Positions 836 through 16,557 are shown, counted from the stretch's first letter. The stretch is DNA of 16,557 nucleotides from an uncultured Bdellovibrionales bacterium (GCA_964351345.1 CAYGNZ010000015.1:1-16557); one strand, 5' to 3'. Made by a program: numbers and translations. Notes: generated from the letters alone by a model not told the origin.

Positions 836-857
836 AGGGGTACCAGCCTGCTCAGAA

Positions 858-887: not shown

Positions 888-953
888 ATATCATTATCAA
901 ATATTGTATAGGTAAATTGCTAGGGAACTCACTTCTCAGCTAAGTTCTCTGCA

Positions 954-2438
954 CTAAGATTGTGATGCCTTAACCACGGGAGTGGTTTCATCAACTTCTT
1001 CGCTGTCGAGCTGTATTAGGCGCACAGCTTCAATTCGGTGATTTTCTACTTTTTCTACTCTTATCACGACTTTAACCTGGTCTTCGGTCGAATCCTCTGC
1101 CTCATCCTCTTCGCCGGCAGCACCGTTGAGTAGCTGAAGAGCTGCGCCGTTCTTGGAGCTCTCCGCCTCTTCTTCAACAACCACCTCTCCCGAGTCAGCA
1201 ATGGAAACCTCATCACCCCCTTCGGGCATTCGCCCCAGGGAAGTAAAAATGAAGCCCGCAATGGTATCGTAGTCACCTTCTGGGATTTCTAGATCAAGCC
1301 GATCATTGAGATCCGTGACCAGCATTCCGCCATCAACCACCACATCTCCATTATCATGCTCAACAAGCTCCAACTCGGGAGTGTCAGACTCATCGAAAAT
1401 GTCGCCAACGATTTCTTCGATTAAGTCTTCAAGAGTCACAAGCCCGTCCACGCCTCCGTGCTCATCAAGCACGATCGCCATATGAAGCTTACGGCTTTTG
1501 AACTCATTGAGCAGATCATCAATGGGCTTTGTGCCGGGAATAAAATACGCCTGCCGCATAATTTTCGAGAGATGAAAGTCTGCCGCTTCCGGCTCGGACT
1601 TATGGGCGATGTAGGAGAGAAGATCTTTTACTAATAAAATGCCGTGAATATCGTCAATACCATTGCCGCTTATCGGAAAGCGAGAAAACCCTGTTTCTTC
1701 TACTCTGGCGAGCACCTCGGGCAGCGCCGCACCAATATCAACCGCAACCAAATCCGTGCGCGGTGTCATTACCTCTCGTGCCACGGTTTCTGAGAAACCA
1801 AACACTCCTCGGAGCATGGTCTCCTCATGCTCGTCAAAGATACCGTGCTCGGTGCTTTGCGTAACAAGTCGGCTAATTTCTGAGGCCGAGTGCATGCGCT
1901 CTGCCGTTTCAGGAACACTCGTGCTGAAAGGCTTTAGGATAAGATTTGCCAACTCAATTACGAGAAAAAGAATTGGTCGAAACACTTGGGCTGCAACAAA
2001 CAACGGTATTGCAAAAACACGTAACGTGCTTTCTGGATTTGCCATCGAGATTGATTTTGCAACCATCTCAGCAATAACAATATGACTGAGCACGGTGGCA
2101 ACGATGGAGATAATCACCGCAAGCGCTTGCCGCCCCAGCCCCCCGAAGCTAAGCGCGTAACTTGACTGCTCCAGTGAGATGAAAAAGACATACGCCAGCC
2201 AGCCCAGCAGAATCGAAGCGACACTTCGCCCGAGCTGACAAACCGCAAGACTAATACTCACCCGTGCAAGCAACCAACACGCTGCGTGTGAGGACCATCG
2301 CTTTTTCTTTCCCTCGACTTCAAACGGTTCGGTACTGCAGCGCAGTATCGCCAATTCCCCTGCGGCACAAATGCCATTGGTCAAGAGCAGCACTGCAGCG
2401 AGGATTAAATAGAAGTGGAGGGAAAACGAGAGTTCCAT
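954..2438 (-). CDS. CNNM/CorC/TlyC-family transporter: DUF21 transmembrane domain + CBS pair + CorC_HlyC (transporter-associated) domain; putative Mg2+/Co2+ efflux or hemolysin-family protein
   Basis: 494 aa from the ATG at 2436-2438 (the track's extra M is a TTG one codon upstream). Four N-terminal hydrophobic helices. CBS motifs (VAREVMTPRTDLVAVD; HGILLVKDLL; MAIVLDEHGGVDGLVTLEDLIEEIVGDIFDE). C-terminal CorC_HlyC-like segment (VVVDGGMLVTDLNDRLDLEIPEGDYDTIAGFIFTSLGRMPEGGDEV...VKVVIRVEKVENHRIEAVRL) interrupted by an acidic low-complexity insert. Confidence 0.9.
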   Translation of the reverse strand: MELSFSLHFYLILAAVLLLTNGICAAGELAILRCSTEPFEVEGKKKRWSSHAACWLLARVSISLAVCQLGRSVASILLGWLAYVFFISLEQSSYALSFGGLGRQALAVIISIVATVLSHIVIAEMVAKSISMANPESTLRVFAIPLFVAAQVFRPILFLVIELANLILKPFSTSVPETAERMHSASEISRLVTQSTEHGIFDEHEETMLRGVFGFSETVAREVMTPRTDLVAVDIGAALPEVLARVEETGFSRFPISGNGIDDIHGILLVKDLLSYIAHKSEPEAADFHLSKIMRQAYFIPGTKPIDDLLNEFKSRKLHMAIVLDEHGGVDGLVTLEDLIEEIVGDIFDESDTPELELVEHDNGDVVVDGGMLVTDLNDRLDLEIPEGDYDTIAGFIFTSLGRMPEGGDEVSIADSGEVVVEEEAESSKNGAALQLLNGAAGEEDEAEDSTEDQVKVVIRVEKVENHRIEAVRLIQLDSEEVDETTPVVKASQS

Positions 2439-2681
2439 CAAAGGTATTGAAAGCTTCCTGCGCTACGTAATTATTTTGCTGAGACAGATTGCATGCCGGG
2501 AGTCTCCGCACGCCTCCGCAGACGCCGGGCGCGCGAAAGTTTCGCTCGAATCAGCTTGAACTGGATGTATGTATGGAGACCAATCGTAGGTGATCAGTAG
2601 GCTTCGACTAGGAGGTTCGTCTTTCACCTATATAGAATGACGGGATTTCTAAGGAACTGTCAAGCAGACACCTACAAAAAT

Positions 2682-2692
2682 AGATACTATCT
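2682..2692. promoter_or_regulatory. 11-bp palindrome AGATAcTATCT in the 380-bp divergent intergenic region between the CorC-family gene and the Hdr-like oxidoreductase gene; candidate operator
   Basis: Perfect inverted repeat with a 1-nt centre, seen directly. It sits ~130 bp upstream of the 2822 start in an AT-richer stretch. No known regulator motif is assigned. Confidence 0.2.
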
Positions 2693-2821
2693 GTTGTAAT
2701 TGCAGGCGCTTAAGCAAATTATCTCTGCTCTTCCACGAGTCCTCCCTCCGAGCCATTTTGGCCCCCTGGAGAGAAGTTACACCCTTTTCTGCCAAAGATT
2801 CGTTCTGCTAGAGTTTTGTGC

Positions 2822-5035
2822 ATGGCTACAAGCACTTCCTTAGATATCGCAAACAGAGAAATCCTCTGGAACGTCTCCTCCACCCCAAACGTGGTGACCA
2901 TGTATTTGCTCTTCGGCATCTCGCTCGTGGTTTGCCTCTGGGGATTCTGGCGTCGCTTTGAACTTTGGAGCGCGGGCACGACCGCCTCCGAGCGGCTGTC
3001 TGCTCCCCTGCGACGAGCGAAGATACTTTGGGACTGGGTGCTCAACCAGAAGGGCGTTGTTGCAGAGCGCAAACCGGGAATTTTTCACACCCTGATCCTT
3101 TGGGGATTCCTGGTGCTGCTATTTGCAACGACCATGGTTTTTATCGATCACGACCTTGGTATTCGTATTTATCAAGGACGCTACTACCTCGCAGTCACCC
3201 TCCTGGCCGATGTCTTTGGCCTGCTCCTCCTGATAGGACTGAGCTTGGCGTACTATCGCCGCTATATCGAACAGCCGGACCGCCTCCACAGTGGCTCAGG
3301 CGATAGTGTGATGCTGGGACTGCTTGTTGCCTTATGTGTGCAAGGCTTTTTGCTGGAAGCATTGCGTATCCACGCCACCGAGGATCCCTGGGCAATATAC
3401 TCTCCCGTGGGCTACGTGCTCAGTTTACTCTTTTGGAATTTCTCAGAAGAGAGCAGCAGGTTACTTCACTTTGTCATTTGGTGGTTTCATGCAATCAGCG
3501 TATTCATCTTTATTGCCCTGCTTCCCTATACCAAATTTCTCCACATTTTCTCTTCGAGCGCCAATTTGTTTTTCAAGGAAATCGATCGACCAAAAGGCGC
3601 GCTGCGATATCCTGGAGATATCGAATCGATGATGGAAGAGATGCTTTCTTCTGAAGATGACGAAGAGTTCATTCTCGGCACTCCGAGCTTGAAGGAACTT
3701 AGCTGGAAGGCACGACTCGACCTTGATGCCTGCACAAGTTGCGGACGCTGTCAGTCGGTGTGCCCCGCCTACAATTCCGGCAAAGCACTCTCCCCGAAAT
3801 GGCTTATCCTCGACACAAGAAATCACATGTTAAAGCTTCGTGCCGACGGCCATCTCGAGTCCGATGCTGAGGTGACTTCTGGGCTTCGCCAGCTCAATGC
3901 GCTCGATCGCGGGCTGCTTGATGACGTGCTCCTTGCCGACTTTAACGAGCCTACTCGTCGGCGAGCAGATAATGAGCTGGTGCAGAATGCGGCGCAGGCC
4001 GTCGGTGAGAAAACAGACGCCCGCCTTGCCGGCGAGGTGATGGACGAGGACGTCTATTGGTCCTGCACGACTTGTCGGGCATGCATGGAGGTCTGTCCTG
4101 TAGGCATCGAGCATGTGGATCACATTCTTGATGTTCGTCGCTCAATGGCACTGATGGACGGCAATATTCCGAGCGAGGCACAAACAAGTCTGCGTGCGAT
4201 AGAAACTCGAGGGAATCCTTTTGGCCCGGCTGAGGAACGCGCGAACTGGAGTGACGGCCTTGAGATTCGCCTGCTTGAAGAGGGTGATTCCGTTGAGGTG
4301 CTCTATTGGGTAGGCTGCATTTCCGCCTACGACAAGAGAAAGCAAAGTATTGCTCGGGCAATGGTTGAAATACTCAATCGTTCCGGGGTGAGCTGGGGGA
4401 TGTTGGGAAATAAAGAGCATTGCACGGGGGACCCCGCTCGTCGCCTCGGCGAGGAGAACCTATTTCAATCCTCTGCGAAGACCAACCTTGCCACGCTCCA
4501 TTCCGTCTCGTTTCAACGCATCGTTGCGAATTGCCCCCACTGTTTTAACACCTTGAAGAACGAATATCCTGCGCTTGGCGCCCTCCAGGAGCAAACCCAG
4601 GTAGAGGTCGTGCATCACAGCCATTTCATCAAGGAACTCCTTGATGCGGGAACGCTGCAGGTGAATCAGGACGCAACGCAAGACATCACCTTTCACGACC
4701 CCTGTTACCTTGGTCGTCATAATGACAGCTACCAGGAGCCACGTGACGTCTTGGTCCAAATCGGCGGAGCAAAGCTTCGTGAAATGAAAGATTCAAAAGA
4801 GCGCGGAATGTGCTGCGGTGCCGGTGGCGGACATTACTGGTTTGATATGAAAGTTGGCGAGCGCGTCAATGTCCAGCGTGCAGAACAAGCCGTCGCCACC
4901 GGCGCTTCTACGGTGGCCACCGGCTGCCCCTTTTGTTTGCAGATGATGGAGGATGGCATGAAACTCGGGGGTCACGAGGAGCAGGTGGAGGTGCGTGACA
5001 TCGCCGAGCTTGTTGCTGCCTCGCTTGTCTCCTAG
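2822..5035 (+). CDS. Fused membrane cytochrome b (NarI/HdrE/DsrM-like, 5 TM, di-heme His pattern) + HdrD/GlpC/DsrK-like iron-sulfur oxidoreductase (2x CX2CX2CX3CP ferredoxin motifs, 2x CCG cysteine-rich domains); putative quinol:acceptor oxidoreductase
   Basis: Five N-terminal TM helices with paired His (FHTLILWGF...FIDH in TM2; LHFVIWWFHAISV...KFLHIF in TM5). Two [4Fe-4S] motifs (CTSCGRCQSVCP, CTTCRACMEVCP). Two CCG-type domains (VGCISAYD...HCTGDP...CPHCFNT, then DPCYLGRHN...MCCGAGGG...GCPFCLQMM). The track ORF begins at TTG 2816. The first ATG is 2822. ATG 2900 (MYLLFG..., directly at TM1) is an alternative start. Confidence 0.85.
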   Translation: MATSTSLDIANREILWNVSSTPNVVTMYLLFGISLVVCLWGFWRRFELWSAGTTASERLSAPLRRAKILWDWVLNQKGVVAERKPGIFHTLILWGFLVLLFATTMVFIDHDLGIRIYQGRYYLAVTLLADVFGLLLLIGLSLAYYRRYIEQPDRLHSGSGDSVMLGLLVALCVQGFLLEALRIHATEDPWAIYSPVGYVLSLLFWNFSEESSRLLHFVIWWFHAISVFIFIALLPYTKFLHIFSSSANLFFKEIDRPKGALRYPGDIESMMEEMLSSEDDEEFILGTPSLKELSWKARLDLDACTSCGRCQSVCPAYNSGKALSPKWLILDTRNHMLKLRADGHLESDAEVTSGLRQLNALDRGLLDDVLLADFNEPTRRRADNELVQNAAQAVGEKTDARLAGEVMDEDVYWSCTTCRACMEVCPVGIEHVDHILDVRRSMALMDGNIPSEAQTSLRAIETRGNPFGPAEERANWSDGLEIRLLEEGDSVEVLYWVGCISAYDKRKQSIARAMVEILNRSGVSWGMLGNKEHCTGDPARRLGEENLFQSSAKTNLATLHSVSFQRIVANCPHCFNTLKNEYPALGALQEQTQVEVVHHSHFIKELLDAGTLQVNQDATQDITFHDPCYLGRHNDSYQEPRDVLVQIGGAKLREMKDSKERGMCCGAGGGHYWFDMKVGERVNVQRAEQAVATGASTVATGCPFCLQMMEDGMKLGGHEEQVEVRDIAELVAASLVS

Positions 5036-5039
5036 GACT

Positions 5040-6836
5040 ATGCTGCCCAAGCCCGATGCCCATATCGAGGTGCTCACGAAGCTCTCAGGCGAGCAGCAGC
5101 TCGAGCTATTTCAGCAAAACGCCTACGCCGAACTTTCCCAACACTACCTCTCCGTCCTTCACTACCTACAACGCTACCCCTTGCTGCAGTTAGGAGAAGA
5201 AACAAAAATTGCACTCAATCTTTTTATCGAACGCTTTCTCTTCTTTTTCTCACAGGCAAGCTTCGAACTCCCCGCCTCCGATGCAGAACGCTTTATTGCG
5301 GCCAATGCAAACATCGCAAATCTTACTGCTCTCTCCGAACTACAAACAACAGACGCCTATCTACAAAAAGTTGCGGTCCAAGAGAATGGACTTGCAAAGC
5401 TTCTCACGCTCTACTCTGCCCGAAACACTGTACGAATAGATCGTTCGGCATTGTTTCAACGTAACCCTCAGCTCGCCTCACGTTGGTATATGGCTTTTTT
5501 CGATACCTACACCAGCGCACTTGCCGACAATAACGCCCTAGAACATTTACGCATGCATCTTGAGAGTATCGACCCACGGATTGATCTCGGTCGGGCAGTG
5601 AATCGAGTGTACTTTGCCTGCACCTATATTGATCCAGAGAAAGACGCTGCGTTTAAACAGTTTATTAATACTCGCGTTCAAGAGAATCATCCGGTAACGC
5701 TCGAATTTGGCCCCGAACATAGGAACAACAAAATTGCCGTGTTCAGCGGCTGCTGGCGGAACACGCACGCGGTGTATAAAAATCAGTTTGCCTTCATCGA
5801 ATCGCTTCGAGATGACTATCAGCTTACCTTTTTCCCCCTTCGTAACCGTCAAGACACTTCGCTCTTTCACAAAATCGACCATTCCTGTCGCGAGGGACCG
5901 CTGCATCTTGAGTCTTTTCAACGGGAGAACTTTGCCGCAGTGTATTTTCCTGATGTAGGGATGACCGAGCAAAGCATTATCCTGGCAAACCTGCGGCTTG
6001 CTCCCTTACAAATCGCATCCTTTGGTCACTCGGTGAGCAGTTTTGGCTCGAAGGTGGACTACTTCATTGCTGGAGAGGAGGTCGAAGACATTTCTCTGTG
6101 GCAAGAGAACTACTCCGAGCGCTTGGTGATACTACCAGGACTGGGGATGGTGAACTTGTTACCCGAGGTCCCTGCCGTAGTTTCTCAGGATGAAAGCGAC
6201 GTCGTTCGTATCGCCTGCCCCTGGTCGGCACCAAAATGCTCTGCAGCGATTATTCAAACGCTAAAAAGAATCGTCGCACACGCTCAGCGCCCACTGCATT
6301 TCCTCTTTTTGGCAGGTGGTGGCGTGACACGAGCAAACGGTTACCTCCCTTTTGTGCGGCAATTGGAATCTACTCTGCAAGGGGCCTCAGTTGAAGTGCT
6401 CCCTCACCTTCCCTATCCAGAGTATTTAGAAAAGATCGGCCAATGTGATTTCGCTCTTGATTCATTCCATTTTGGTGGCTGCAATAGCGTGGTTGATGTC
6501 TTACTTCTTGGTAAAGCAATTCTCAGTCAACAAGGCTCAAAATGGTACAACCGAATCGGAGGAGCCCAGCTCAAACACATCGGGCTTGGGGAGCTGGTTC
6601 ACCAAAGCGATGATTCTTACTGCGAGCAAGCCCTACGGATAATTAACGAACCAGGGTATCTGGCCGCGCTTGAAGAAAAAATACATGCCGCAGACATCGC
6701 AAACGGAGCGCTGTTTTCAACCCAGCCTGCAGTCGGCTTTAAGCGTGCAATCGACTACCTCATGGCGAATCATCATCAGCTCAGCAAAGAAAACACCCGT
6801 GCGCCTATCGAAATTAGTTTGAATCTCTCGGATTAG
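5040..6836 (+). CDS. GT41-family glycosyltransferase (O-GlcNAc-transferase / HMW1C-NGT-like catalytic domain) with an all-helical N-terminal domain and no TPR repeats
   Basis: 598 aa from ATG 5040, 5 bp after the upstream TAG. The upstream GTG at 4995 lies inside the previous gene. The C-terminal two-thirds align by eye to OGT-family blocks: [26 protein letters not shown] vs OGT [43 protein letters not shown] vs G(Y/H)PGTTG..[21 protein letters not shown] vs [52 protein letters not shown] vs [35 protein letters not shown]. Its size (~600 aa) and helical N-terminal domain resemble HMW1C/ApNGT-type enzymes. Confidence 0.7.
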   Translation: [598 protein letters not shown]

Positions 6837-6962
6837 ATAGAATTAGCAAAAAACTTCCCCCGATAAGGTGACGCTTGATGCATACTAAAGCATATCCCTA
6901 GCGAACCAGTATTTTTGAGTATTGCGTTTGATGAGAACAAACACGAAACGGGGAATTGTATC

Positions 6963-7412
6963 ATGCCATCGCAAGCAACCGTACGTAACAACCGAGTGCT
7001 CAGCACAATATACTTTGTTGCTGCCCTAACGTTCTTCGGCGTAGCCTACTACATGGCTCGGACCTTTGAGATATGGTCCCCCTTACTGCTGACACTCAGT
7101 GCGGCAAGCCTGAGCATTGCCGTGCTCACCTTGCTGACCAAACGTCCGTTTATCACCTATCTAATTTGCGTGCTCACGTATGTATTTGCGATCCAGCAAA
7201 GCCTCTCAAGCCTACTCGGATCAAGTATCTATGACTCACTCGGTTTATTGTTTGCCTGCACGGCCTTCTTCTCGACTCCGCTGATTTATCTCTTAATCAA
7301 ACAGTCGCAGATCAACTCTCAACATTCGCTTCGTGATACGCTTTTTACGCTGCCCACTTTCCGCAGTGACGCTGCGAAGAAAAGCGATACCCCAACCGCT
7401 GCAAATAGTTAG
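6963..7412 (+). CDS. Small integral membrane protein (4 predicted TM helices), hypothetical
   Basis: The track ORF starts at TTG 6915. The first ATG is 6963, preceded by GGGGAA 7 nt upstream. Four hydrophobic stretches (LSTIYFVAALTFFGVAYY; LLLTLSAASLSIAVLTLL; ITYLICVLTYVFAI; LGLLFACTAFFSTPLIYLLI). No family recognised. Confidence 0.6.
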   Translation: MPSQATVRNNRVLSTIYFVAALTFFGVAYYMARTFEIWSPLLLTLSAASLSIAVLTLLTKRPFITYLICVLTYVFAIQQSLSSLLGSSIYDSLGLLFACTAFFSTPLIYLLIKQSQINSQHSLRDTLFTLPTFRSDAAKKSDTPTAANS

Positions 7413-7420
7413 AACCTCAA

Positions 7421-8422
7421 TCACGCTTGCTTCAGCTGCTCCGGCACGAGTGTACGTGCCGTCTGTGCCGCGATGAAATTCAACACCGGCGCGAGGTAAC
7501 GCAGGCCTGGTGTAAACTGCAGCGCTCTTCCTCCCTCCGTAGCAGCAACATTTAGAATATCTCGAAGACTGAAGTCAGACTGCGCAAGTCGCTCTGAGAC
7601 TCGGCGCAACTCACTCCAAAGTCCCGCAGAAAGCGTCGTTGCACTTTCTAGTACAGACGCAGTTTTTGGCGAAACCGCTGCAATCCCCTGCACGGCCAGC
7701 GAGAGTGGATCAAATACTGCTGCAATTTTTGCAAAATCTCCGAACGCCCCCCGGAGAAATGATCCAATGCCTCCACTCTTCTTGTAGTAGTAGGACACAG
7801 GAACGGTCTCACCTGTGGGCGTGTCCTTAAGCTCAAGAACATAATAGCGACGTCCATCCTTGATACGAATTCTATCACTCGGATTCTCCAAGAACTGTGC
7901 GAGTTCTTGTTCATATTCCGCAATGAAGTCATTCACCCAGCGGTCGATGTTCTCATTTGCAACTGAACTCTGATCGCTTCGCGCGGGGAGCTTACTGACT
8001 TCAATGCCGAGCGCGAGACTAATTTCTGCCAACTTCCTATTCTGTTCAGGTGTCAGCAAGGGGTTTCGCAGACGAACAAAGCCAAGGGAGCTCCAGGCCA
8101 GAAATCCGTTCTCACTATCTCCAAGCCCGCCGTTTCTTTCCGTCGCGGCGGATACCTCTTGTTGCCAGGCAGGACTGAGGAAATTCGCAACTCCTGCAGC
8201 TGCAATCTCTCCGGCTGACTTCGGTGTGGGCACATATGCGGCAATATACTCTTGGGTGATGTTCTCAAACGAGAGTTCGGCGTCTGCAATGGAGAGGCTT
8301 TGGTAGGGACGCTCGGCGAGCACTGCTGAGCCGAACTGGGTAGTGCTCGGTGCTTGCGCAAGGTACTGCGCTAACCGAGGTGCAAGCGGAGGAGAAGTGG
8401 TGGCAATCGAAGAAGTCATCAT
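7421..8422 (-). CDS. Hypothetical protein, 333 aa, no recognisable domain
   Basis: Long ORF with coding-like composition, starting ATGATG with no obvious SD. Its stop is 8 bp from the stop of the convergent membrane-protein gene. Its 300-bp upstream region is shared divergently with the TerB-like gene. Confidence 0.65.
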   Translation of the reverse strand: MMTSSIATTSPPLAPRLAQYLAQAPSTTQFGSAVLAERPYQSLSIADAELSFENITQEYIAAYVPTPKSAGEIAAAGVANFLSPAWQQEVSAATERNGGLGDSENGFLAWSSLGFVRLRNPLLTPEQNRKLAEISLALGIEVSKLPARSDQSSVANENIDRWVNDFIAEYEQELAQFLENPSDRIRIKDGRRYYVLELKDTPTGETVPVSYYYKKSGGIGSFLRGAFGDFAKIAAVFDPLSLAVQGIAAVSPKTASVLESATTLSAGLWSELRRVSERLAQSDFSLRDILNVAATEGGRALQFTPGLRYLAPVLNFIAAQTARTLVPEQLKQA

Positions 8423-8549
8423 AGCAGGGACTCAGTAAAACGGTTTTTCTTCTGAACTAATCGCTGAGAGCGCCATTTAGTTGCGCTTTGCTGATAAATA
8501 CTAGCCCAGGCCACGCGATCGCAGCTGATACCCTCAGATAATGAGTAGG

Positions 8550-8559
8550 AATTGCAATT
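8550..8559. promoter_or_regulatory. Perfect 10-bp palindrome AATTGCAATT (followed by a related ATTGCtttCAAT half-site pair) in the divergent promoter region between the orphan gene (-) and the TerB-like gene (+); candidate operator
   Basis: Seen directly in the sequence. It lies ~130 bp upstream of the orphan gene start and ~165 bp upstream of the TerB gene start. No regulator is assigned. Confidence 0.2.
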
Positions 8560-8723
8560 ACTTATTGCTTTCAATATCCAGGTTCACGATAATCACGCCA
8601 CAAAGGTAAAGCGAAGTGGCCCGTTTCACCGATACTAGCAATGAATTTTGTCAGAGGAACCTGAGCGAGCATGCTGCGAGAATTCTCGCAGTAGCATCAA
8701 GAAAGGTTCAAAAAGGAGCTAGA

Positions 8724-9185
8724 ATGTTTAAAAACATGGACCAATTCCTCCAGGGAGCAGCCACGCTAGAGGTTGATGTTTCTGGTCAGCTCAGTCAACG
8801 CGATTTACAAATAAGCACTGCCGCACTTTTGCTCCAGATGGCGCATGCGGATGAAAAACTTACCAATGGTGAAATTGATGCCATGGTAAGCACGATGGAT
8901 AAATTATTTGTGCTCCAAGGGAATGTGGCGGGAGATTTACTCGAAGTCGCTGACTTCCTTCGTCGAGATCAAACTAAGCTTGATGATCTGCTCAAAGTCG
9001 TCAATAAGCGATTCGACGCCGCTCAAAAACAAACAATCGTCGCAATGCTCTGGAAAGTGATGAATGCAGACGGTTTTATTGACCCCTTTGAAGCGAATTT
9101 GGCCGCCGAGATCAGCATGAAGTTAGGGCTCAGTGTTGATGAGGTAAAAAAAGCTCAATCTCTCGCGGATACCGCACAAGTTTAA
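8724..9185 (+). CDS. TerB-like (tellurite-resistance TerB / DjlA N-terminal-like) helical domain protein
   Basis: 153 aa from ATG 8724, with a strong SD AAAAAGGAG (8710-8718) 5 nt upstream. The track ORF starts at an upstream GTG 8616 without an SD. Two TerB-type repeats with the acidic-glycine signature: LLLQMAHADEKLTNGEIDAM and LWKVMNADGFIDPFEANLAAEISMKLGLSVDEV. Confidence 0.75.
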   Translation: MFKNMDQFLQGAATLEVDVSGQLSQRDLQISTAALLLQMAHADEKLTNGEIDAMVSTMDKLFVLQGNVAGDLLEVADFLRRDQTKLDDLLKVVNKRFDAAQKQTIVAMLWKVMNADGFIDPFEANLAAEISMKLGLSVDEVKKAQSLADTAQV

Positions 9186-9232
9186 ACTGAAGTCTAGGAC
9201 CTTATTGATACACATAGCCGAGGAAGAAAAAC

Positions 9233-10279
9233 ATGGGTTTATGGGACGGGATAAAGGGTCAACTCCGATCGGTCATCGAATGGGAGAATGCCAGCAAAGA
9301 TGCGCTCTTTGAGCAGTGGACCTCCAACGGTGATGAAATAAAAAATGCTTCAAAGCTAATCGTCAAACCCGGGCAAGGTGTTATCTTCCTCTACGAAGGA
9401 AAAATAGAGGCCGTCCATACCGAAGAGGGCATGTTTGATCTTGCGACATCGAACATTCCGTTTTGGACAACGATTACGAAGTTCATGCAGGCGTTTGAGA
9501 GTGAGCATAAGGTCGGCATTTACTACTTCTGGAAAACGCAGTTTCTCGACCAGAAATGGGGCACTGCAACGCCGGTGAAATACGACGATCCGGTGTATAA
9601 GTTTCCTGTGTCCCTACGTGCCCATGGAAACTTTACCTTCCAAATTACCAAGCCTGAATTCTTTTTTGTGCAGGTAGTGGGAAGTGAGAAGCTGTATCCT
9701 GTAGCAACGGCTCGCCGAGTAATTACTGATCGTTTCATTCAGGAGCTGAGCGACCTTTTTGCAGAAGCAGGGCATAGCTACGCTGAGATTGATAAAAATC
9801 GAAACGAACTCTCGGCAGCACTGAAAGAAAAACTCCAGCCCGTGTTCGAGCCGCTTGGCTTTACCATGAATGACTTCAGAATCGAGGGCACGGACTTCGA
9901 CCAAGACACGCAAGCTCGTATCGCTAAAATCGCCGATATGACTGCTGAAGCCGAGGCGGCGAAACGGGCGGGAATTTCTTATGCAGAAATGCAACAACTC
10001 CATGCGCTTCGTGATGCAGCGAAGAACGAAGGTGGTCTTGCGGGAGCAGGAGTCGGGCTTGGAGCAGGAGTTGGGCTTGGCCAGGTATTTGCCGCAGGAA
10101 TGGCTGGCAATATGGCACAGGGCAACGCCGGCGCTCCAGCCGCAGCCGCAGCCGCAGCCGCAGCCGATGAGAATAGTCCTACCGCACGATTAAAGAAACT
10201 CAAGGACATGCTCGATGCCGAGCTAATCTCTCAAGAGGAGTTCGATAAGAAACGAGCTGAAATACTCGCTGCCCTTTAG
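9233..10279 (+). CDS. SPFH/Band-7 domain protein with C-terminal SHOCT domain (YdjI-like), with a Gly/Ala low-complexity linker
   Basis: SD GAGGAAG 6 nt upstream of ATG 9233. The N-terminus MGLWDGIKGQLRSVIEWEN...ALFEQW...IKNASKLIVKPGQ follows the conserved YdjI-type SPFH start (MGLFDKLKGE..IEW...LVW). The C-terminal TARLKKLKDMLDAELISQEEFDKKRAEILAAL is a SHOCT-type helix-turn. The linker contains GAGVGLGAGVGLG and A9. Confidence 0.9.
   Translation: MGLWDGIKGQLRSVIEWENASKDALFEQWTSNGDEIKNASKLIVKPGQGVIFLYEGKIEAVHTEEGMFDLATSNIPFWTTITKFMQAFESEHKVGIYYFWKTQFLDQKWGTATPVKYDDPVYKFPVSLRAHGNFTFQITKPEFFFVQVVGSEKLYPVATARRVITDRFIQELSDLFAEAGHSYAEIDKNRNELSAALKEKLQPVFEPLGFTMNDFRIEGTDFDQDTQARIAKIADMTAEAEAAKRAGISYAEMQQLHALRDAAKNEGGLAGAGVGLGAGVGLGQVFAAGMAGNMAQGNAGAPAAAAAAAAADENSPTARLKKLKDMLDAELISQEEFDKKRAEILAAL
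10043..10078 (+). repeat. Tandem 18-bp direct duplication (GGAGCAGGAGTCGGGCTT / GGAGCAGGAGTTGGGCTT) encoding GAGVGL x2 within the SPFH-SHOCT linker
   Basis: Two adjacent 18-bp units with 1 mismatch, seen directly. Confidence 0.85.
10137..10166 (+). repeat. (CAGCCG)5 hexanucleotide microsatellite encoding poly-Ala (PAAAAAAAAAAD) in the SPFH-SHOCT linker
   Basis: Five perfect tandem CAGCCG units, seen directly. In-frame coding repeat, not a CRISPR. Confidence 0.9.
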
Positions 10280-10284
10280 AGAAA

Positions 10285-10899
10285 ATGAGTTCTCAAAACT
10301 ATACTTGCCCATCGTGTAGTGCTCCGCTTGAAGTTGCGCATCGGTTTACCAAGCTCGTGATTTGTGCGTACTGCAACCAAGCCTCCTTGGTCACACCGAG
10401 CGGTCTTGATCCAAGCGGTGAGCAGGTCCCTCTGGCAGACTTCCCTTCTCGCTTTGCGATTGGCAAATCGGGCACACTCAATGGCGAGACATTTACGGTG
10501 CTGGGTCGTCTTCGCTACGGCTATGAGGGAGGATTTTGGGACGAGTGGTTTCTTTCATTCTCCGATGGGAAAAAGCGCTGGCTTCAAGAAGACGAAGGCG
10601 AACTGACGCTGTTTGAAAAAGAGTCGCTCACCGCTCCTGTGCCCGCTTTTAATGAGATCTCAGTGGGCTCACTACTCCCCGTGAATGAATTCAAGGTGTT
10701 TGTCACGGAGAAAAACAAAGCGAGTATTCGTGGCGGGGAAGGCGAGCTGTTTTTTACCGTGCAACCGGGAAGCACCGTGTATTGCATCGACGGCAACGCG
10801 GGAGGTGAACTCGTCTCCTTAGAGTTTAGCGATTCAGAAATTTGCTTTTCAAAAGGGAAAGAAATTTCACACGAATCTATCAATCTGGAAGATCAATGA
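10285..10899 (+). CDS. DUF4178-type protein with N-terminal zinc ribbon (CPSC...CAYC)
   Basis: Starts 5 bp after the SPFH stop. N-terminal YTCPSCSAPLEV...VICAYCNQASL zinc ribbon. Trp-rich core GETFTVLGRLRYGYEGGFWDEWFLSFSDGKKRWLQEDEGELTLF, which matches what I recall of the DUF4178 signature (G..Y.v.GR..Y....WdEw.L..dG...WLe.d). Confidence 0.75.
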   Translation: MSSQNYTCPSCSAPLEVAHRFTKLVICAYCNQASLVTPSGLDPSGEQVPLADFPSRFAIGKSGTLNGETFTVLGRLRYGYEGGFWDEWFLSFSDGKKRWLQEDEGELTLFEKESLTAPVPAFNEISVGSLLPVNEFKVFVTEKNKASIRGGEGELFFTVQPGSTVYCIDGNAGGELVSLEFSDSEICFSKGKEISHESINLEDQ

Positions 10900-12218
10900 A
10901 AATCGAGGCACTTCGTTGCTCAAAATGCGATTTGCCTTTGCATGTCTCTCCAAGAGATGGAGAGAGAATTACCTGCCCTGGCTGCGGAGCAGAGAACCAC
11001 TTTGACTGGGACTCTCTCCAAGCGGACGCCACCGCCGCCCCGGATCGATTCAAACCACGCTCCTTTATCTCGCTAGGCGCTTCCGGCACCTACCAGGCAA
11101 AAGCCGTGGAAGTAATTGGGCGAATTTGCAAGTCGGCATCTATCCGAGAATGGGACCCTGAGGATAGTCGGTACTATACCGAGCCCTGGGATTTCGATGT
11201 CTGGGTGCTCGTAGATCAAGATAAAAAATACCTCTACCTCTCAGAAGACGCCGAAGGCTACTCCATCTCGGAAGCCTTCACCCCGAGCAATCCCGAAATT
11301 CCCGTCACGGGTGCTCAGCAGATGACGCTTTTTACCGAACAGCCACAGCAACGGGTGTTAGAGGAAGCCACGGTTACCACCGAGTATTTCGAAGGGGAGT
11401 TTACCTGGACCCCACGACGAGGAGCGCTCTCGAAGTATTTTGAATACGGACACCGTGGTCTAACCTATAGCGTAGAGTGGAGCCTCGCTGAAGATGGACA
11501 GGCAATTGAAGAAGTCGAATTTTTTAAAACTACCCCCCTGAGTAAGCTCCAAGTAGCAGAAATTTTCGGCGAAGAATCTGTGCTTGAGGAAGAACGACAG
11601 AAGCTCGCCGCTGCCGCGCAAGCAAAGAAGTGGGGTAAAGCCTTTTTTGCAGTAGGCGCATTTATGGCGCTCTTGTTACTCGTCAGTTTTTTCCAGAGCG
11701 GCAAGCTCCTCGCCTCCTACAAAGTTCCCTTGGATAAGATTGGCGAAGCGGGAGTGATTCAAGGCCCGATAGAGCTGAAACAAACAGACAGCGTCTACCG
11801 GATTGTGATTAGCACCAGCATTCCTGATAATTCCTGGGCATGGGCCGCCTATGAAATACTCGACCACGAGCAAGCGGCAATTAACGCCGTTGAGGGAGAG
11901 TTTTGGCGTGAGTCTGGGAGAGACTCTGATGGGCCTTGGTCAGAGCAGGACACTGAAACAGACGATTATTTCCGATTAAGCGAGGCAGGGAAGTACTATG
12001 TGCGTATTTTTGCAGAAGCGGGCACAGCCCGCACCGGAACGGTCTCGGTAAAAGTATTTGAGGGAATTACCCTTAGTCGCTACTACTTTTTAGTGATGCT
12101 GATGTGTTTTGGTTATGGCTTTGCCATACTGCGGTATAAATCGCTCAAGCCGTGGTATCTGATCGTGGGTATCCTGGCACTCGGTTTTTTCATACTCTCA
12201 AACATGGGCGATGACTAG
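10896..12218 (+). CDS. Membrane-anchored DUF4178-like paralog: N-terminal zinc ribbon + DUF4178-like core + TM helix + ~140-aa extracytoplasmic/intervening domain + two C-terminal TM helices
   Basis: ATG 10896 overlaps the upstream TGA (ATGA), with SD GGAAG 5 nt upstream. The track ORF has an unlikely upstream extension. Zinc ribbon LRCSKCDLPLHV...ITCPGCGAENHF. Core YQAKAVEVIGRICKSASIREWDPEDSRYYTEPWDFDVWVLVDQDKKYLYLSEDAEGYSISEAF, parallel to the W/E pattern of the preceding gene. TM helices WGKAFFAVGAFMALLLLVSFF, YYFLVMLMCFGYGFAIL and WYLIVGILALGFFIL. Confidence 0.8.
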   Translation: MKIEALRCSKCDLPLHVSPRDGERITCPGCGAENHFDWDSLQADATAAPDRFKPRSFISLGASGTYQAKAVEVIGRICKSASIREWDPEDSRYYTEPWDFDVWVLVDQDKKYLYLSEDAEGYSISEAFTPSNPEIPVTGAQQMTLFTEQPQQRVLEEATVTTEYFEGEFTWTPRRGALSKYFEYGHRGLTYSVEWSLAEDGQAIEEVEFFKTTPLSKLQVAEIFGEESVLEEERQKLAAAAQAKKWGKAFFAVGAFMALLLLVSFFQSGKLLASYKVPLDKIGEAGVIQGPIELKQTDSVYRIVISTSIPDNSWAWAAYEILDHEQAAINAVEGEFWRESGRDSDGPWSEQDTETDDYFRLSEAGKYYVRIFAEAGTARTGTVSVKVFEGITLSRYYFLVMLMCFGYGFAILRYKSLKPWYLIVGILALGFFILSNMGDD

Positions 12219-12220
12219 CG

Positions 12221-12454
12221 ATGAACGGACTATCAAAACTTTTTGCTGCAACGCTGCTCGCCTCTGCCGTAGGACTTCCCTACTTTGCCTCGACCCGTGG
12301 CTGGGGTGTGGGCACCGAGCGTAGTGCGCGCATCATGAGAGAACTGCAAAAAACATGTGTACAAAAAGATGCCTTTGGTAACTGCGCTCGAAGTCACCGC
12401 AGTTACTTCTACGGCAGGAGCCTCCGTGGAGGAGGCCCTCGATTCGGCAAGTAG
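12221..12454 (+). CDS. Small hypothetical protein (77 aa) with hydrophobic N-terminus (signal peptide or TM) and Arg/Gly-rich basic C-terminus
   Basis: ATG 2 bp after the upstream TAG, co-directional within the operon. N-terminus LSKLFAATLLASAVGLPYFAST. It fills the only gap (12219-12523) in the cluster. No family recognised. Could be a spurious ORF. Confidence 0.35.
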   Translation: MNGLSKLFAATLLASAVGLPYFASTRGWGVGTERSARIMRELQKTCVQKDAFGNCARSHRSYFYGRSLRGGGPRFGK

Positions 12455-12523
12455 CATAGAAACAATTAAGAACAAGGCCAACTGAGCAACATCAGCGAAA
12501 ACGAACTTACGAAGGAGAGCCTC

Positions 12524-12829
12524 ATGAAACTAAAATCTTTGCCCCTACTTTCCGCCCTGGCTGCATTCAGCTTCAATATGCTCAGCGCCTCTGCGGCACA
12601 GGCTGCGACAGTGGTCACTGGCGAGCCTCTCGTTGATGGCGTCGTACTGACCGTACTCTATAGTGTGGTGGGTATCATCATGACCTTTGTTGCCTACAAA
12701 GTGGTAGACTTAATCACTCCAGGCGATCTCTCTGCCGATATCGGTAAAGGCAATGTCGCCCTTGCGATACTCACCGGCTGCTTCGTCCTCGGCATTTCAA
12801 TTATCATCGCAGCAGCAATTGTCGGCTAG
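12524..12829 (+). CDS. DUF350 family small membrane protein (YjfL-like) with N-terminal signal/TM segment
   Basis: Strong SD GAAGGAGAG 4 nt upstream of ATG 12524. 101 aa with a C-terminal DUF350 signature VDLITPGDLSADIGKGNVALAILTGCFVLGISIIIAAAIVG (the I-T-P-x-D-E/L...GN-A-A...G pattern as I recall it from YjfL-family proteins). Confidence 0.75.
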   Translation: MKLKSLPLLSALAAFSFNMLSASAAQAATVVTGEPLVDGVVLTVLYSVVGIIMTFVAYKVVDLITPGDLSADIGKGNVALAILTGCFVLGISIIIAAAIVG

Positions 12830-12882
12830 CATGCGGGGCGGAGAAACACACACTCGCTCGCCTCATTGCACCTAAAGACTGT

Positions 12883-14409
12883 ATGACAGAAGCGAATTCG
12901 ACTCGCGACGCAAGGACTGCGATCCTGATTTTTGCAGTGCTCATCACCTCGTTCTGCGCGATTGTGTATGAGCTACTAATCAGCACCCTCTCTAGTTACC
13001 TCTTTGGCGGTAGCGTCCTGCATTTCTCTCTCACTATCGGACTCTTTATGAGCTTCATGGGAGTAGGCAGCTACCTTTCAAAGTACGTGGAAACAAAGCT
13101 GCTCGATTGGTTTGTCGGCATCGAAATTTTCATTGCGCTGCTGGGCGGATTCTCTGGGCTCCTGCTGTATGGTGCCTACAGTCTCACAGAATTTTACTAT
13201 GCAATTGCTTTTTGCCTGATTGCCCTAATTAGCATCGGCGTGGGCATGGAAGTGCCGCTCATTACAAGAATTATCAAAGAGAATTCCCGGCTACAAGACG
13301 CCTTAGCCAATGTGCTTGCCGTTGATTATGCAGGAGCATTACTGGCCTCCATCCTTTTCCCCGTTATTCTCTTGCCCTATCTCGGCGTCATGCGAACCGC
13401 GTTCGCGGTAGGCATCCTGCACGTCATTGTTGCTGCATATACCTGCGTGGTGCTCGCAGAGATTCTACAACTGAAAAAACTTCACCTGCTCGCCTCCGCC
13501 GCCTCCGCGCTGTTGCTGCTACTGGGGTTTGCCTACTCGCTTTCTCTCGTCGGCATTCTGGAACAGTATCTCTATCAAGATCAGATTTTGTATTCGCAGC
13601 AATCGAGCTACCAAAAAATCGTCCTCACCAAACACAAAGCAGACACACGACTCTTTCTTGATGGCAATTTGCAGTTTAGCTCAATTGATGAATATCGCTA
13701 TCACGAAACCTTAGTGCATCTCCCACTGCACCTCGTCCCTCAAGCCGAAAACGTCTTGCTCCTTGGCGCCGGTGACGGCTTAGCCCTACGAGAGTTACTG
13801 AAATACCAATCAATAAAAAGCATTACCTTAGTCGATCTAGACCCGGTGATTACGCAGCTCGCCAGAGAGAACAAAGACCTACGCGAGCTAAACGCAAACT
13901 CCCTGGATGATCCGCGCGTCACGATTTACAACCAAGATGCCTTTGAGTTTATCGCCAAGAACGAAGCGCTCTATTCCGTAATTATCGCTGACCTCCCTGA
14001 CCCGAACACACTTAGCTTAGGAAAACTCTACACCAAGGAATTCTATACCCTCCTCCGCAAACGTCTCGCAGGCGATGGAGTGTTTATCACCCAAGCCACC
14101 TCACCCTATTTTGCTCGCCTACCCTTTTGGTGCATTCATCAAACAATGGAGGCCGCGTTCCCGCATGTGCAAGCTGCGCAACTCTATGTGCCCTCTTTTG
14201 GTATTTGGGGATTTCAACTTGCGATGAACCACTCATTTAGCTTGCCGGATACGGAATTTCGCGTGCCCACCCGCTGGCTTACCCCAGAGTTGGTCTCGGG
14301 CATGGAGCGCTTTGACGCTGATATTGCTGAAGTGCCAACCACGATCAATCGCTTAGATAATCAGACCTTAGTGGGCTACTACGAAGCAAGCTGGGAGGAC
14401 TGGAACTAA
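12883..14409 (+). CDS. speE: Polyamine aminopropyltransferase (spermidine/spermine synthase family) fused to an N-terminal ~230-aa polytopic membrane domain
   Basis: N-terminal hydrophobic helices (ILIFAVLITSFCAIVYELLISTL; LTIGLFMSFMGVGSYL; IEIFIALLGGFSGLLLYGAY; AIAFCLIALISIGVGM; AGALLASILFPVILLPYLGV; GILHVIVAAYTCVVLAEI; ASALLLLLGFAYSLSLVGI). The C-terminal SpeE domain has the decarboxylated-SAM binding motif NVLLLGAGDGLALRELLKY (cf. GGGDGG) and the catalytic-region motif YSVIIADLPDPNTLSLGKLYTKEFY (cf. DVIIVDSSDP...LFT.EFY). Confidence 0.85.
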   Translation: MTEANSTRDARTAILIFAVLITSFCAIVYELLISTLSSYLFGGSVLHFSLTIGLFMSFMGVGSYLSKYVETKLLDWFVGIEIFIALLGGFSGLLLYGAYSLTEFYYAIAFCLIALISIGVGMEVPLITRIIKENSRLQDALANVLAVDYAGALLASILFPVILLPYLGVMRTAFAVGILHVIVAAYTCVVLAEILQLKKLHLLASAASALLLLLGFAYSLSLVGILEQYLYQDQILYSQQSSYQKIVLTKHKADTRLFLDGNLQFSSIDEYRYHETLVHLPLHLVPQAENVLLLGAGDGLALRELLKYQSIKSITLVDLDPVITQLARENKDLRELNANSLDDPRVTIYNQDAFEFIAKNEALYSVIIADLPDPNTLSLGKLYTKEFYTLLRKRLAGDGVFITQATSPYFARLPFWCIHQTMEAAFPHVQAAQLYVPSFGIWGFQLAMNHSFSLPDTEFRVPTRWLTPELVSGMERFDADIAEVPTTINRLDNQTLVGYYEASWEDWN

Positions 14410-14430
14410 AGATAGGGAAATGCTATCTTT
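14408..14430 (+). terminator. AT-rich hairpin (AAAGATAG-ggaaatg-CTATCTTT) overlapping the speE-like stop codon; weak candidate terminator/attenuator
   Basis: Perfect 8-bp stem with a 7-nt loop, seen directly. No T-tract follows (AAGCTAATT), so intrinsic-terminator function is doubtful. Confidence 0.2.
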
Positions 14431-14527
14431 AAGCTAATTAAAGCCGGAAGTTGCTCGGAATTGCGCTGCTCATCCGCGAATAGCTCCTGACAGTCCAGTT
14501 CTCTCAGATCTGATCGCCGTAGAATTC

Positions 14528-15890
14528 ATGCCTCACGATACCTCACGCAAAGACTTCTCATTTAAGCTGCTCTGTCTTGCTGACCTACATCTCGGTCGTA
14601 CTCCTTCTAAACTGCAATCCAGCCAACAACTTGAACAACTCTCTGAAGAAGAACTAGAACTTTGCTCGAGCGTGCAAATACGCAATCGATGCCAAACTCG
14701 ACGCGGTGTTGCTTGCAGGCGATTTAGTCGATAAATCAAACGCTCTATTTGAAGCCTACGGCATTCTTGCCAAGGGAGTGCAAAGCCTCCTTGCGGCGGG
14801 GATACCGGTAATCGCTATCGCAGGAAACCACGATTTCGAAGCACTACCTCGTCTCGCCGCGGAGCTTGATGGCTTCACCCTGCTGGGCGCATCGGGGGAC
14901 TGGGAGGAGGCGCTCATTGAAAATCGCTCCCAAACAAACCGCCTTCGAGTGCAAGGAGTCTCCTTCACTAGTAGCGAGTGGAACACAAACCCGCTTACTC
15001 ATTACACCGCGCCGGATGATGCAATCCCCACGATTGCCTTGCTTCATTGTGACCTCGATACCACCACAAGTAAGTATGCGCCGGTCACTCGCAGCGATCT
15101 CATCATGCAGCATCCTTCGGCTTGGCTTCTCGGGCATATTCACAAGCCGCAAATCCTCAGCACGCAGCCGCTCATTCTCTATCCAGGCTCACCTCAAGGT
15201 CTTGATCCAGGCGAGCCTGGTGCTCACGGCGGAACACTGATTACGCTCGATCAGAACAACGCCGTCCAAGCAACCCCGGTTGAATTTGCCGGTCTACGCT
15301 ATGAGAGCATTGCGGTAGATATCAGTGAAGCGACAACGGTCGAAGGCGTGCGAGCGTTGCTCATTCCAGAGCTTCGGCAATGGCATGAGCGCGAAACGAG
15401 GAATACCTCGTTCCTCCGATTTGTTTCGCTTCGGCTATCGCTCCAGGGAGCCTGCGATCTGTCGCGCAACGAGCTCGCGGCACTGCAACTTGAGTTAGAA
15501 CAAGACACTCTAGAGATTGGAGAAACTCGCTACCTTTTTGAGCAGGTTCGGCTAGAAACGAGACCACGGATAGACCTCGCCACGCTCTCAGGACGAGACG
15601 ACCCTCCCTCCCTTCTCGCCCGTCGCATTGAGATGCTGCAAACAAAATCTCCCCCTGATCAGTATCAAGAGCTGATTGCCACCGCTTCCGGTCGGCTCGA
15701 AGCCATCACTCAGCAACAACAGTTCCAAGTTTTAGGCATCGAGGAGCTTGAAGAAGAATGTGTGCGCCAGGATCTCCTTTCAGCGGCCTGGGCCTTGCTC
15801 GATGACTTGCTTAAGCAACAAAGCGCTCCCGTCCTGCAAAATCCTTCCTCCAATCAAGCGGCGGATCAAAGCACCGAGGAAACTCGATGA
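14528..15890 (+). pseudogene. sbcD: sbcD/Mre11-family metallophosphoesterase (DNA repair exonuclease), interrupted by a frameshift near 14655-14665 (authentic pseudogene or sequencing error)
   Basis: Phosphoesterase motif I (FKLLCLADLHLGR) is encoded at 14528 in one frame, which continues to ...SEEELEL. The rest of the domain (FARACKYAIDAKLDAVLLAGDLVD, motif II; IAIAGNHDF, motif III; LLHCDLD; LGHIHKPQ) is in the +1 frame, which opens only after a TAG at 14655-14657. A single 1-nt insertion or 2-nt deletion around GAACTAGAACTTTGCT would restore one ~450-aa ORF. The stop TGA overlaps the ATG of the downstream ATPase gene. Confidence 0.6.
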
Positions 15891-16557
15891 AGATTCGCAA
15901 GTTACAAATCGAGCAGCTTCACACCAGGCGTCCAATTGCGCTCCGCAACATTGGCAGCGGTGTGCATATCGTGATCGGCCCCAACGGCTCAGGGAAATCC
16001 AGTAGCGCACTGGCAATCAAAGGCCTTCTTTGGCCAGAACTACTGCACGACATCGCGTTCCCGCAGCTGAGAAGCATCTGGAGCATGCACGGTAAGGAAC
16101 TTCAAATTAACCGAACTGGACAAAACGCCGACTACCTCCTTGCCACCGAGAAGGCTTCTCCTCCGAGTCTCCCTCCGGCACACCTCGCCTCCTGCTTTAC
16201 GATAACCTTGGATGAGATTTTTGATGGGCAAGATAGAACCTTGGCCGAGGAAATTGAACGAGACTTCGCGGGTGGCTATGACTTAAAAGCACTGCGAGAA
16301 TCCCAACTGCATTCGACCTCCCGCAGTAGCCTCACCCGTGCTCGTTCGGAGTTACAAACCGCGAACAAAATTCGTCGCGCGACAGAACTTGAACAACAAA
16401 CACTGCGCAAGAAACAGGAAAAACTTGTTGAGCAGAAAGCAGAGATTGAAGCAATTGAACAGAGCATGCGACGTGCGAAGCATCTTGAAAAGGCTCTTCG
16501 TCGTCTTCAGCGCCTCTCCGAAGCACGACAGCTCGATCAACAACTACAAGGCTTTCC
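15887..16557 (+). CDS. SbcC-like / YhaN-like AAA P-loop ATPase with coiled-coil region, N-terminal 223 codons (gene continues beyond window end)
   Basis: Not in the track because it has no stop before the window end. ATG 15887 overlaps the sbcD TGA (ATGA), with SD GAGGA 7 nt upstream. Walker A: VHIVIGPNGSGKSSSALAIKGLLWPE after the conserved IRKLQIEQL...N-terminal strand. This is followed by a Q/E/R/K-rich heptad sequence typical of the SbcC/Rad50-family coiled coil. The frame is open to 16557. Confidence 0.75.
   Translation, partial: MKIRKLQIEQLHTRRPIALRNIGSGVHIVIGPNGSGKSSSALAIKGLLWPELLHDIAFPQLRSIWSMHGKELQINRTGQNADYLLATEKASPPSLPPAHLASCFTITLDEIFDGQDRTLAEEIERDFAGGYDLKALRESQLHSTSRSSLTRARSELQTANKIRRATELEQQTLRKKQEKLVEQKAEIEAIEQSMRRAKHLEKALRRLQRLSEARQLDQQLQGF

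Follow-up and report, generated by a model that had tools for sequence, protein, structure and literature searches.

The window analysed here is the whole 16,557-nucleotide stretch of DNA from an uncultured Bdellovibrionales bacterium (GCA_964351345.1 CAYGNZ010000015.1:1-16557). Between positions 8724 and 14409 it carries seven + strand open reading frames (ORFs), all co-directional, which encode a TerB-domain protein, an SPFH protein, two zinc-ribbon (ZnR) proteins with DUF4178-like domains, a small basic protein, a DUF350 membrane protein and an aminopropyltransferase (SpeE) fused to a domain of seven transmembrane (7TM) helices. We show that all seven genes are real. The start codons used for the TerB gene (ATG 8724) and for the fourth gene (ATG 10896) both agree with public gene calls in relatives. 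The genes, with the evidence for their assignment, are as follows:

8724-9185 (+), TerB-domain protein of 153 amino acids (aa), first gene of the operon
9233-10279 (+), SPFH-SHOCT protein, 348 aa (Band_7_1 and C-terminal SHOCT)
10285-10899 (+), DUF4178a, cytoplasmic zinc-ribbon and DUF4178 protein, 204 aa (Pfam DUF4178)
10896-12218 (+), DUF4178b, membrane-spanning DUF4178 paralog, 440 aa (alignment to DUF4178a, AlphaFold2 model)
12221-12454 (+), small basic protein, 77 aa (conserved position, codon pattern)
12524-12829 (+), DUF350 (YjfL-like) half-size membrane protein, 101 aa (Pfam DUF350)
12883-14409 (+), 7TM-fused aminopropyltransferase (SpeE) of the PRK03612 family, 508 aa (NCBIfam, Pfam)

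The gaps between these genes are, in order, 47, 5, -4 (an ATGA overlap), 2, 69 and 53 bp; these spacings and the common direction match exactly those given in the original prediction, a model's reading of the same DNA. Its view that the region reads as one operon is upheld by the short spacing together with synteny kept across phyla, and it is on these grounds, not on promoter or terminator scans, that we call the region one operon. Indeed, consensus scans for sigma-70 promoters and intrinsic terminators over 8300-14800 gave the same counts as shuffled controls and are uninformative on operon boundaries. On the 5' side, a 300-bp intergenic region at 8423-8723 separates the operon from a divergent gene (7421-8422, -). 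The statement that nearly all the genes have Shine-Dalgarno sequences did not hold: clear ones precede only the TerB gene (AGGAG), the SPFH gene and the DUF350 gene, and the remaining four have weak sites or apparent translational coupling. Scans of the window with Rfam, at the gathering threshold, and for tRNAs returned no match and no riboswitch leader.

The domain calls were borne out, six of them being confirmed by hidden Markov models (HMMs) and DUF4178b being placed as a divergent DUF4178 paralog. The TerB domain is matched in Pfam at 3.5e-21, and the protein has the same length of 153 aa in three relatives (loci L002, L010 and L014); no Ter system partner of the TerC, TerD, TerA or TerZ type was found among the window proteins, where the TerB domain alone is present. 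The SPFH protein (Band_7_1, 7.2e-36; Band_7, 6e-8 in Pfam) is of the soluble, YdjI type, with a Gly/Ala-rich hydrophobic linker followed by a C-terminal SHOCT helix pair (residues 319-345, 1.8e-6, 27.9 bits against a cut-off of 27). DUF4178a is matched by Pfam DUF4178 at 3.3e-12. Taken alone, DUF4178b gave only weak zinc-ribbon matches in Pfam and none to DUF4178; however, it aligns with DUF4178a over about 200 aa (E=7e-9) and many of its homologs carry PF13785, so that we regard it as a divergent paralog. AlphaFold2 gave confident models for both proteins. In that of DUF4178b, with a predicted local distance difference test (pLDDT) value of 88.5, a ZnR and a DUF4178-like beta domain precede a long TM helix (227-266); a beta-sandwich some 120 residues in size (270-389) comes next, and a further pair of TM helices lies at the C-terminus, a topology that would place the ZnR and beta domain in the cytoplasm and the beta-sandwich outside it. 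Finally, the DUF350 protein (Pfam, 6.1e-14) matches positions 2-66 of the 133 in the profile, i.e. half of it; the protein carries a signal peptide of the Sec type (…ASAAQA/AT) as well as two TM helices, at 39-57 and 82-100.

To delimit the parts that travel together, a DUF4178a alignment was scanned against 185,579 species genomes. The resulting 75 loci came from Bdellovibrionales-like metagenome-assembled genomes (MAGs), many Bacteroidota (among them the cultured Rhodocytophaga aerolata and Xanthocytophaga flavus, loci L024 and L035, which have the whole DUF4178a-DUF4178b-small-DUF350-SpeE cluster), Granulosicoccaceae, Thiotrichaceae, Chloroflexota, one Kineosporiaceae MAG, Myxococcota and Planctomycetota. 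Counts given below refer to 80 non-redundant related loci, in which ORFs were called and HMMs built from the window proteins were used. The nearest relatives are labelled Bdellovibrionales, and the cluster is kept in relatives whose DUF4178b identity ranges from 81% down to about 24%. One order recurs: DUF4178a, DUF4178b, the small ORF, then usually DUF350 and the 7TM-SpeE; DUF350 comes after the small gene in 35 loci. Judged from this recurrence, the core of the module is the ZnR-DUF4178 pair with the small ORF, whereas SPFH and TerB lie outside it. In the order ZnR-DUF4178a, membrane-spanning DUF4178b, small -GK protein, DUF350, 7TM-SpeE, the module core is conserved in Bdellovibrionales-like bacteria, Bacteroidota, Gammaproteobacteria (Granulosicoccaceae, Thiotrichaceae), Chloroflexota, Actinomycetota and Myxococcota. 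Among the 50 loci having enough flanking sequence, SpeE is adjacent in 26, and 19, all from Bacteroidota, have the DUF4178 pair and the small gene with no adjacent SpeE. Conversely, Chloroflexota-type loci possess SpeE and lack the small gene. As a separate observation, a Myxococcota locus (L077, ~5000-11800) has two giant DUF4178b-like proteins of about 830 aa preceding the DUF4178 pair.

The small basic ORF had first been treated as incidental; it belongs instead to the core, its place in the cluster being kept, across phyla, in at least 60 of the 80 loci. Proteins of this family start with a signal peptide or anchor and carry a GWG motif, an FRSYY-like motif, a Gly-rich tail and, usually, a Cys pair (NCP.YY.N..G.C), and every homolog inspected (>60 sequences) ends in Gly-Lys, with no exception. 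Compared with L002, a relative at 81% identity, the gene shows 41 synonymous and 8 non-synonymous codon differences, its nucleotide differences being distributed 7/4/48 over codon positions 1/2/3, which indicates strong purifying selection on the protein. We therefore have here a conserved small gene that gene callers systematically miss: it is mostly uncalled in the public annotation of the relatives' contigs, and a word-indexed protein search returned no match, the gene being short and rarely called. An exhaustive phmmer search of 1.84 billion protein representatives retrieved about 30 members, matches without a name or named 'hypothetical protein', and all 15 of those inspected end in GK; a Pfam scan of 22 members assigned no family. 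Signal-bearing and Gly-rich in its tail, the protein has no lipobox Cys and occupies the position of the Ctha_1186 lipoprotein in the operon of Ravi et al. (PMC11237479). Aside from this, one Bacteroidaceae MAG (L030, 1559-4776) has the module duplicated, with two Ser-rich small proteins ending ...YSGGSYSYGK.

The head of the operon is more restricted. SPFH-SHOCT lies directly 5' of DUF4178a, with the same architecture, in 14 of the 80 loci and TerB occurs in about five, the TerB counts being lower bounds because the first TerB HMM missed a divergent TerB in locus L018. Both are therefore lineage-restricted accessories. The genes are syntenic in relatives, but SPFH is not part of the core. A betaproteobacterial locus (L009, 8547-11935) encodes a full-length DUF350, a Band-7-SHOCT protein and a DUF4178 protein of 644 aa but has no SpeE in its vicinity, which shows that SPFH, DUF4178 and DUF350 can occur together in the absence of the aminopropyltransferase.

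No PspA/IM30 gene was detected in the window in any frame among ORFs of at least 40 aa, whether by phmmer with E. coli PspA and YjfJ or with a three-sequence PspA profile, and the Pfam PspA model matched none of the called window genes. Likewise, YjfI or YjfJ/PspA, the CesT/Tir(DUF2170)-PspA dyad, had no match in the window or in 79 of the 80 related loci. The absence of PspA had been noted for the operon and the window, and was found here to extend to the related clusters, 79/80 of which have no PspA within reach. The single locus with one is L018, whose DUF4178a is 50% identical to that of the window. There, positions 376-10624 encode, co-directionally, an unknown protein of 1130 aa, PspA (Pfam, 3.4e-18), an AAA+ ATPase, TerB, an unknown protein of 495 aa, a Band_7_1 protein and DUF4178a, where the contig breaks off, too early for any DUF4178b or SpeE to be visible. 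The Band_7_1 protein is YdjI-like, with three zinc ribbons and no SHOCT tail. This bridging locus connects the SPFH-TerB-DUF4178 association evolutionarily to Psp systems. Thereby, the proposal of a PspA-independent system is right in that the locus is PspA-less, but too strong in that the module is evolutionarily tied to Psp through the PspA-AAA+-TerB-SPFH-DUF4178 set of L018; the suggested link to Psp and polyamine neighbourhoods is real.

The last gene encodes the enzyme of the operon. In Pfam it matches Spermine_synth (9.6e-41), and with the NCBIfam equivalog PRK03612, which stands for membrane-fused polyamine aminopropyltransferases, it scores 582 bits, the cut-off being 472. The protein has seven hydrophobic segments. 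Aligned with B. subtilis SpeE (1iy9; 1.4e-36), the catalytic domain keeps GAGDG, VDLD and DLPDP, i.e. the GxGDG motif that binds decarboxylated S-adenosylmethionine (dcSAM), the acidic ribose-binding residue and the catalytic D..DP motif. From these motifs, the protein is very likely a catalytically competent dcSAM-dependent aminopropyltransferase. Across 29 seven-TM homologs, the mean number of Lys and Arg residues is 1.6 for the N-terminus and 2.1, 3.2 and 3.2 for loops 2-3, 4-5 and 6-7, as against 0, 0.1 and 0.7 for loops 1-2, 3-4 and 5-6. This pattern, the same in 29/29 homologs, leads a simple hydropathy and positive-inside analysis, a crude predictor, to place the N-terminus inside and the catalytic domain outside the cytoplasm.

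What such an enzyme makes is less obvious than its family name. Bacterial membrane-bound aminopropyltransferase (APT) fusions are experimentally uninvolved in spermidine or spermine synthesis, according to a statement in a 2025 JBC article that cites Li et al. 2019 (PMC12803844). On the strength of that statement, the original proposal of local polyamine synthesis is doubtful. A gene for S-adenosylmethionine decarboxylase (AdoMetDC) lies directly 3' of SpeE in L007, L017 and L021-type loci. Within a few kb of the cluster, L004 (19376-20461, -) and L006 (19353-20444, -) also encode a soluble AdoMetDC-spermidine-synthase fusion (about 362 aa), which suggests that canonical spermidine synthesis is handled apart from the membrane enzyme in these two genomes.

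Several neighbouring genes deserve mention in their own right. In five of the clade's loci (window, 14528-16557; L002, 13534-18346; also L006, L013 and L014), whose upstream flanks differ, SpeE is followed on its own strand by genes for a Metallophos (SbcD/YhaO-like) protein and an SMC_N/AAA_27 (SbcC/YhaN-like) protein of about 1150 aa, the latter with internal hydrophobic segments; this pair could be a further accessory or mere local synteny. In the window, the SbcD-like gene (14528-15890, +) is split by a frameshift, residues 1-33 being in frame 2 (14528-14611) and the rest in frame 3 (14661-15884). The L002 ortholog is intact (462 aa); the window copy is a pseudogene, or else the MAG was misassembled here. 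In one relative (L004, 12050-15223, equivalent to L005 and L011), a 1057-aa SF1 helicase (AAA_11/AAA_12) with a C-terminal PLD nuclease stands between DUF350 and the 7TM-SpeE. Upstream of the operon, a 165-aa hydrophobic protein (6915-7412, +) and a 333-aa protein (7421-8422, -), both without a Pfam match, are conserved in the closest relatives only (L002, L010 and L014), which is probably clade-specific synteny.

The model that best accounts for these observations, and to which we give slightly better than even confidence, is a membrane-embedded, envelope-associated aminopropylation module, scaffolded by SPFH and acting on a non-canonical acceptor. In its favour are the domain calls, the synteny in relatives, the AdoMetDC genes behind SpeE, the intact SpeE motifs, the structure models and fold matches of the two DUF4178 proteins, the Shewanella-type and Band-7-2TM-SHOCT precedents, and the statement on membrane-APT fusions. 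The 7TM-SpeE would use dcSAM, supplied in some relatives by the co-encoded AdoMetDC, to aminopropylate an amine acceptor at the membrane instead of making bulk spermidine. DUF4178b would act as a trans-membrane receptor or adaptor, its extracytoplasmic sandwich binding a ligand and being coupled to the cytoplasmic ZnR/DUF4178 domain, which may in turn pair with soluble DUF4178a. SPFH-SHOCT, joined by TerB in this sub-lineage, could provide a sub-membrane scaffold in place of the Shewanella-type CesT/Tir-PspA dyad. The module would then likely serve to maintain the envelope or to protect against stress, by giving an envelope component a modification that resembles a polyamine.

Several points weigh against this model. 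Substrate and topology, as well as the parts played in scaffolding and in physiology, are all inferred, and the components of this lineage are so far known as sequences. Co-transcription is deduced from spacing and synteny. An outward-facing, dcSAM-dependent domain, as predicted by crude hydropathy, would be biochemically awkward and surprising. SPFH and TerB are missing from most related loci, and the scaffold role is proposed by analogy with B. subtilis YdjI and with the inference of Ravi et al. Lastly, the 19 Bacteroidota loci without adjacent SpeE imply that the DUF4178 pair need not depend on aminopropyl transfer.

Among the alternatives, the one that survives best, unlikely though it seems to us, is that the operon is an incomplete Psp system. 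PspA, AAA+, TerB, a Band_7_1-ZnR protein and DUF4178a are indeed joined in one co-directional cluster in L018, and the Shewanella-type operon includes PspA (PMC11237479). However, PspA is within reach at that one locus of the 80, where the SPFH tail is moreover a ZnR and not SHOCT, and the published Band-7-2TM-SHOCT replacement, which occurs without PspA, favours substitution over recruitment (PMC11237479). The two explanations are not exclusive.

A less probable alternative specifies the acceptor: the exported small protein itself would be aminopropylated, the outward SpeE modifying the epsilon-amine of the invariant C-terminal Lys while the DUF4178b sandwich binds substrate or product. Here the 4-aminobutyl side chain of Lys would mimic putrescine. 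The more than 60 inspected members of the family all end in -GK, and the catalytic domain is predicted outside, by the positive-inside rule, in all 29 SpeE homologs. The order small protein, DUF350, polyamine enzyme recurs in three operon types, E. coli offering the parallel of yjfL-yjfM-yjfC, which encode DUF350, a Gly/Arg-tailed lipoprotein and a peptide-spermidine ligase, and the physiological substrates of YjfC/YgiC and of the membrane-APT fusions are both unknown. Yet the small protein has no homology with YjfM/DUF1190 by hhalign (probability 1%), the two genes are uncoupled both in the Chloroflexota-type loci (SpeE without the small gene) and in the 19 Bacteroidota loci (the small gene without adjacent SpeE), and there is no known route for dcSAM into the periplasm. 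Its topology is also ambiguous, the very basic tail favouring the cytoplasm if the N-terminus is an uncleaved anchor. Extended to membrane-fused aminopropyltransferases at large, with the small -GK protein as their non-polyamine acceptor, its GK Lys modified outside by SpeE, the DUF4178 pair as sensor or chaperone and SPFH or PspA as organiser, the idea is a still more tentative speculation. If true, it would mean a protein-tethered polyamine, mechanistically akin to the ligation of spermidine to C-termini by YjfC/YgiC beside DUF1190 proteins, and would account for the 'polyamine-independent role' of AdoMetDC.

It appears improbable that SpeE serves ordinary polyamine biosynthesis or export, as a housekeeping membrane spermidine synthase that happens to sit beside unrelated membrane genes. 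The NCBIfam family name is that of a polyamine aminopropyltransferase and the SpeE catalytic motifs are intact, but the linkage of SpeE to DUF4178, the small gene and DUF350 is kept in loci from six or more phyla whose flanks are otherwise unrelated, the separate soluble AdoMetDC-SpeE fusion lies nearby in L004 and L006, and the JBC statement on the membrane-APT fusions speaks against it. Weakest of all, an anti-phage defence or abortive-infection island using SPFH and TerB, to which the known occurrence of such proteins in stress and defence contexts, the SF1-helicase-PLD gene of L004, the SbcCD-like pair downstream in five loci and a PADLOC mad2 match to the methyltransferase fold of SpeE (2e-16) might point, was rejected, because that match, covering the generic Rossmann methyltransferase fold, was the only one PADLOC returned for any operon component, and the core is moreover vertically conserved beside housekeeping genes (e.g. 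ispF in Bacteroidota) and not in variable islands.

The interest of the module thus defined lies in its parts: the PRK03612 family, to which mycobacterial SpeE belongs, is widespread, as are DUF350 and DUF4178, and all three lack a known function. The locus and its relatives define a minimal partner set, the DUF4178 pair with the small -GK protein, on which SPFH-SHOCT and CesT-PspA act as interchangeable heads; this lends support to SPFH and PspA scaffolds as functional alternatives. What we add is the recognition of the small -GK protein as a core component, together with a concrete candidate substrate.

The operon type itself has been described, in the only paper on DUF4178 that a literature search retrieved within the searchable library. 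In Shewanella, the proteobacterial operon SO_3762-67, of six to seven genes, encodes in order a LipoSIG+Ctha_1186+low-complexity protein, DUF350, a 7TM-spermine-synthase, CesT/Tir, PspA, DUF4178 and RHH (the 'second major group' of Ravi et al. 2024, mSystems, PMC11237479). The window shares with it the 7TM-SpeE, DUF350, DUF4178 and a small protein that has a signal sequence and a low-complexity tail, as well as the local order small protein, DUF350, 7TM-SpeE. It differs in having neither the CesT/Tir-PspA dyad nor the RHH regulator, in a duplicated DUF4178, one copy of which spans the membrane and bears an extracytoplasmic beta-sandwich, in the SPFH-SHOCT and TerB genes at its head, and in a small protein that, unlike the small lipoprotein of Shewanella, is without a lipobox cysteine.

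In the sister ATP-grasp polyamine operon of the same study, its 'third group, second variant', Band-7-2TM-SHOCT stands in for the CesT/Tir-PspA dyad (PMC11237479), and it is to this 'Band-7 + 2TM + SHOCT' architecture that our SPFH-SHOCT protein corresponds. In both cases the dyad gives way to a Band-7 protein that has a hydrophobic linker, ends in SHOCT and adjoins DUF350 and a polyamine enzyme. However, the enzyme of that YjfC-like variant is an ATP-grasp relative of peptide-spermidine ligases, where the window has an aminopropyltransferase with DUF4178 proteins, and its own partners are DUF1190, DUF2491, a K+ channel, AdoMetDC and polyamine oxidase.

The E. coli yjfIJKLMC cluster likewise has DUF350 (YjfL) beside a small envelope lipoprotein with a Gly/Arg-rich C-terminal tail (YjfM) and the polyamine-conjugating YjfC. 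It differs by its PspA paralog YjfJ and CesT-like YjfI, and has no DUF4178, SPFH or SpeE. As hhalign detected no homology between the small-protein family and YjfM (the DUF1190 comparison above) or between DUF4178a and YjfK (DUF2491; probability 0.5%), the parallel is positional only.

With pspA-ydjGHI of B. subtilis, the window shares a soluble Band_7_1-type SPFH encoded with a zinc-ribbon membrane protein, but has neither PspA nor the TPM-domain YdjH. Its ZnR proteins carry DUF4178, where the B. subtilis one carries an NTF2-like, YpeB-related domain, and its SPFH ends in SHOCT, where YdjI ends in a ZnR. It is the bridging locus L018 that resembles this operon, with a YdjI-like Band_7_1-ZnR protein beside DUF4178 and PspA upstream.

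The module had been proposed as uncharacterised, a label that does not fit in the sense of unflagged, the DUF4178/DUF350/7TM-SpeE operon being already present in Ravi et al. 2024 (PMC11237479). As both the operon type and the Band-7-2TM-SHOCT replacement were described there, the operon is not a new system: it is a polyamine-linked envelope operon of a published type, in a version that lacks PspA. It recombines published elements: the small protein-DUF350-SpeE sub-order, a duplicated, membrane-anchored DUF4178, and a Band-7-SHOCT head in exchange for the dyad.

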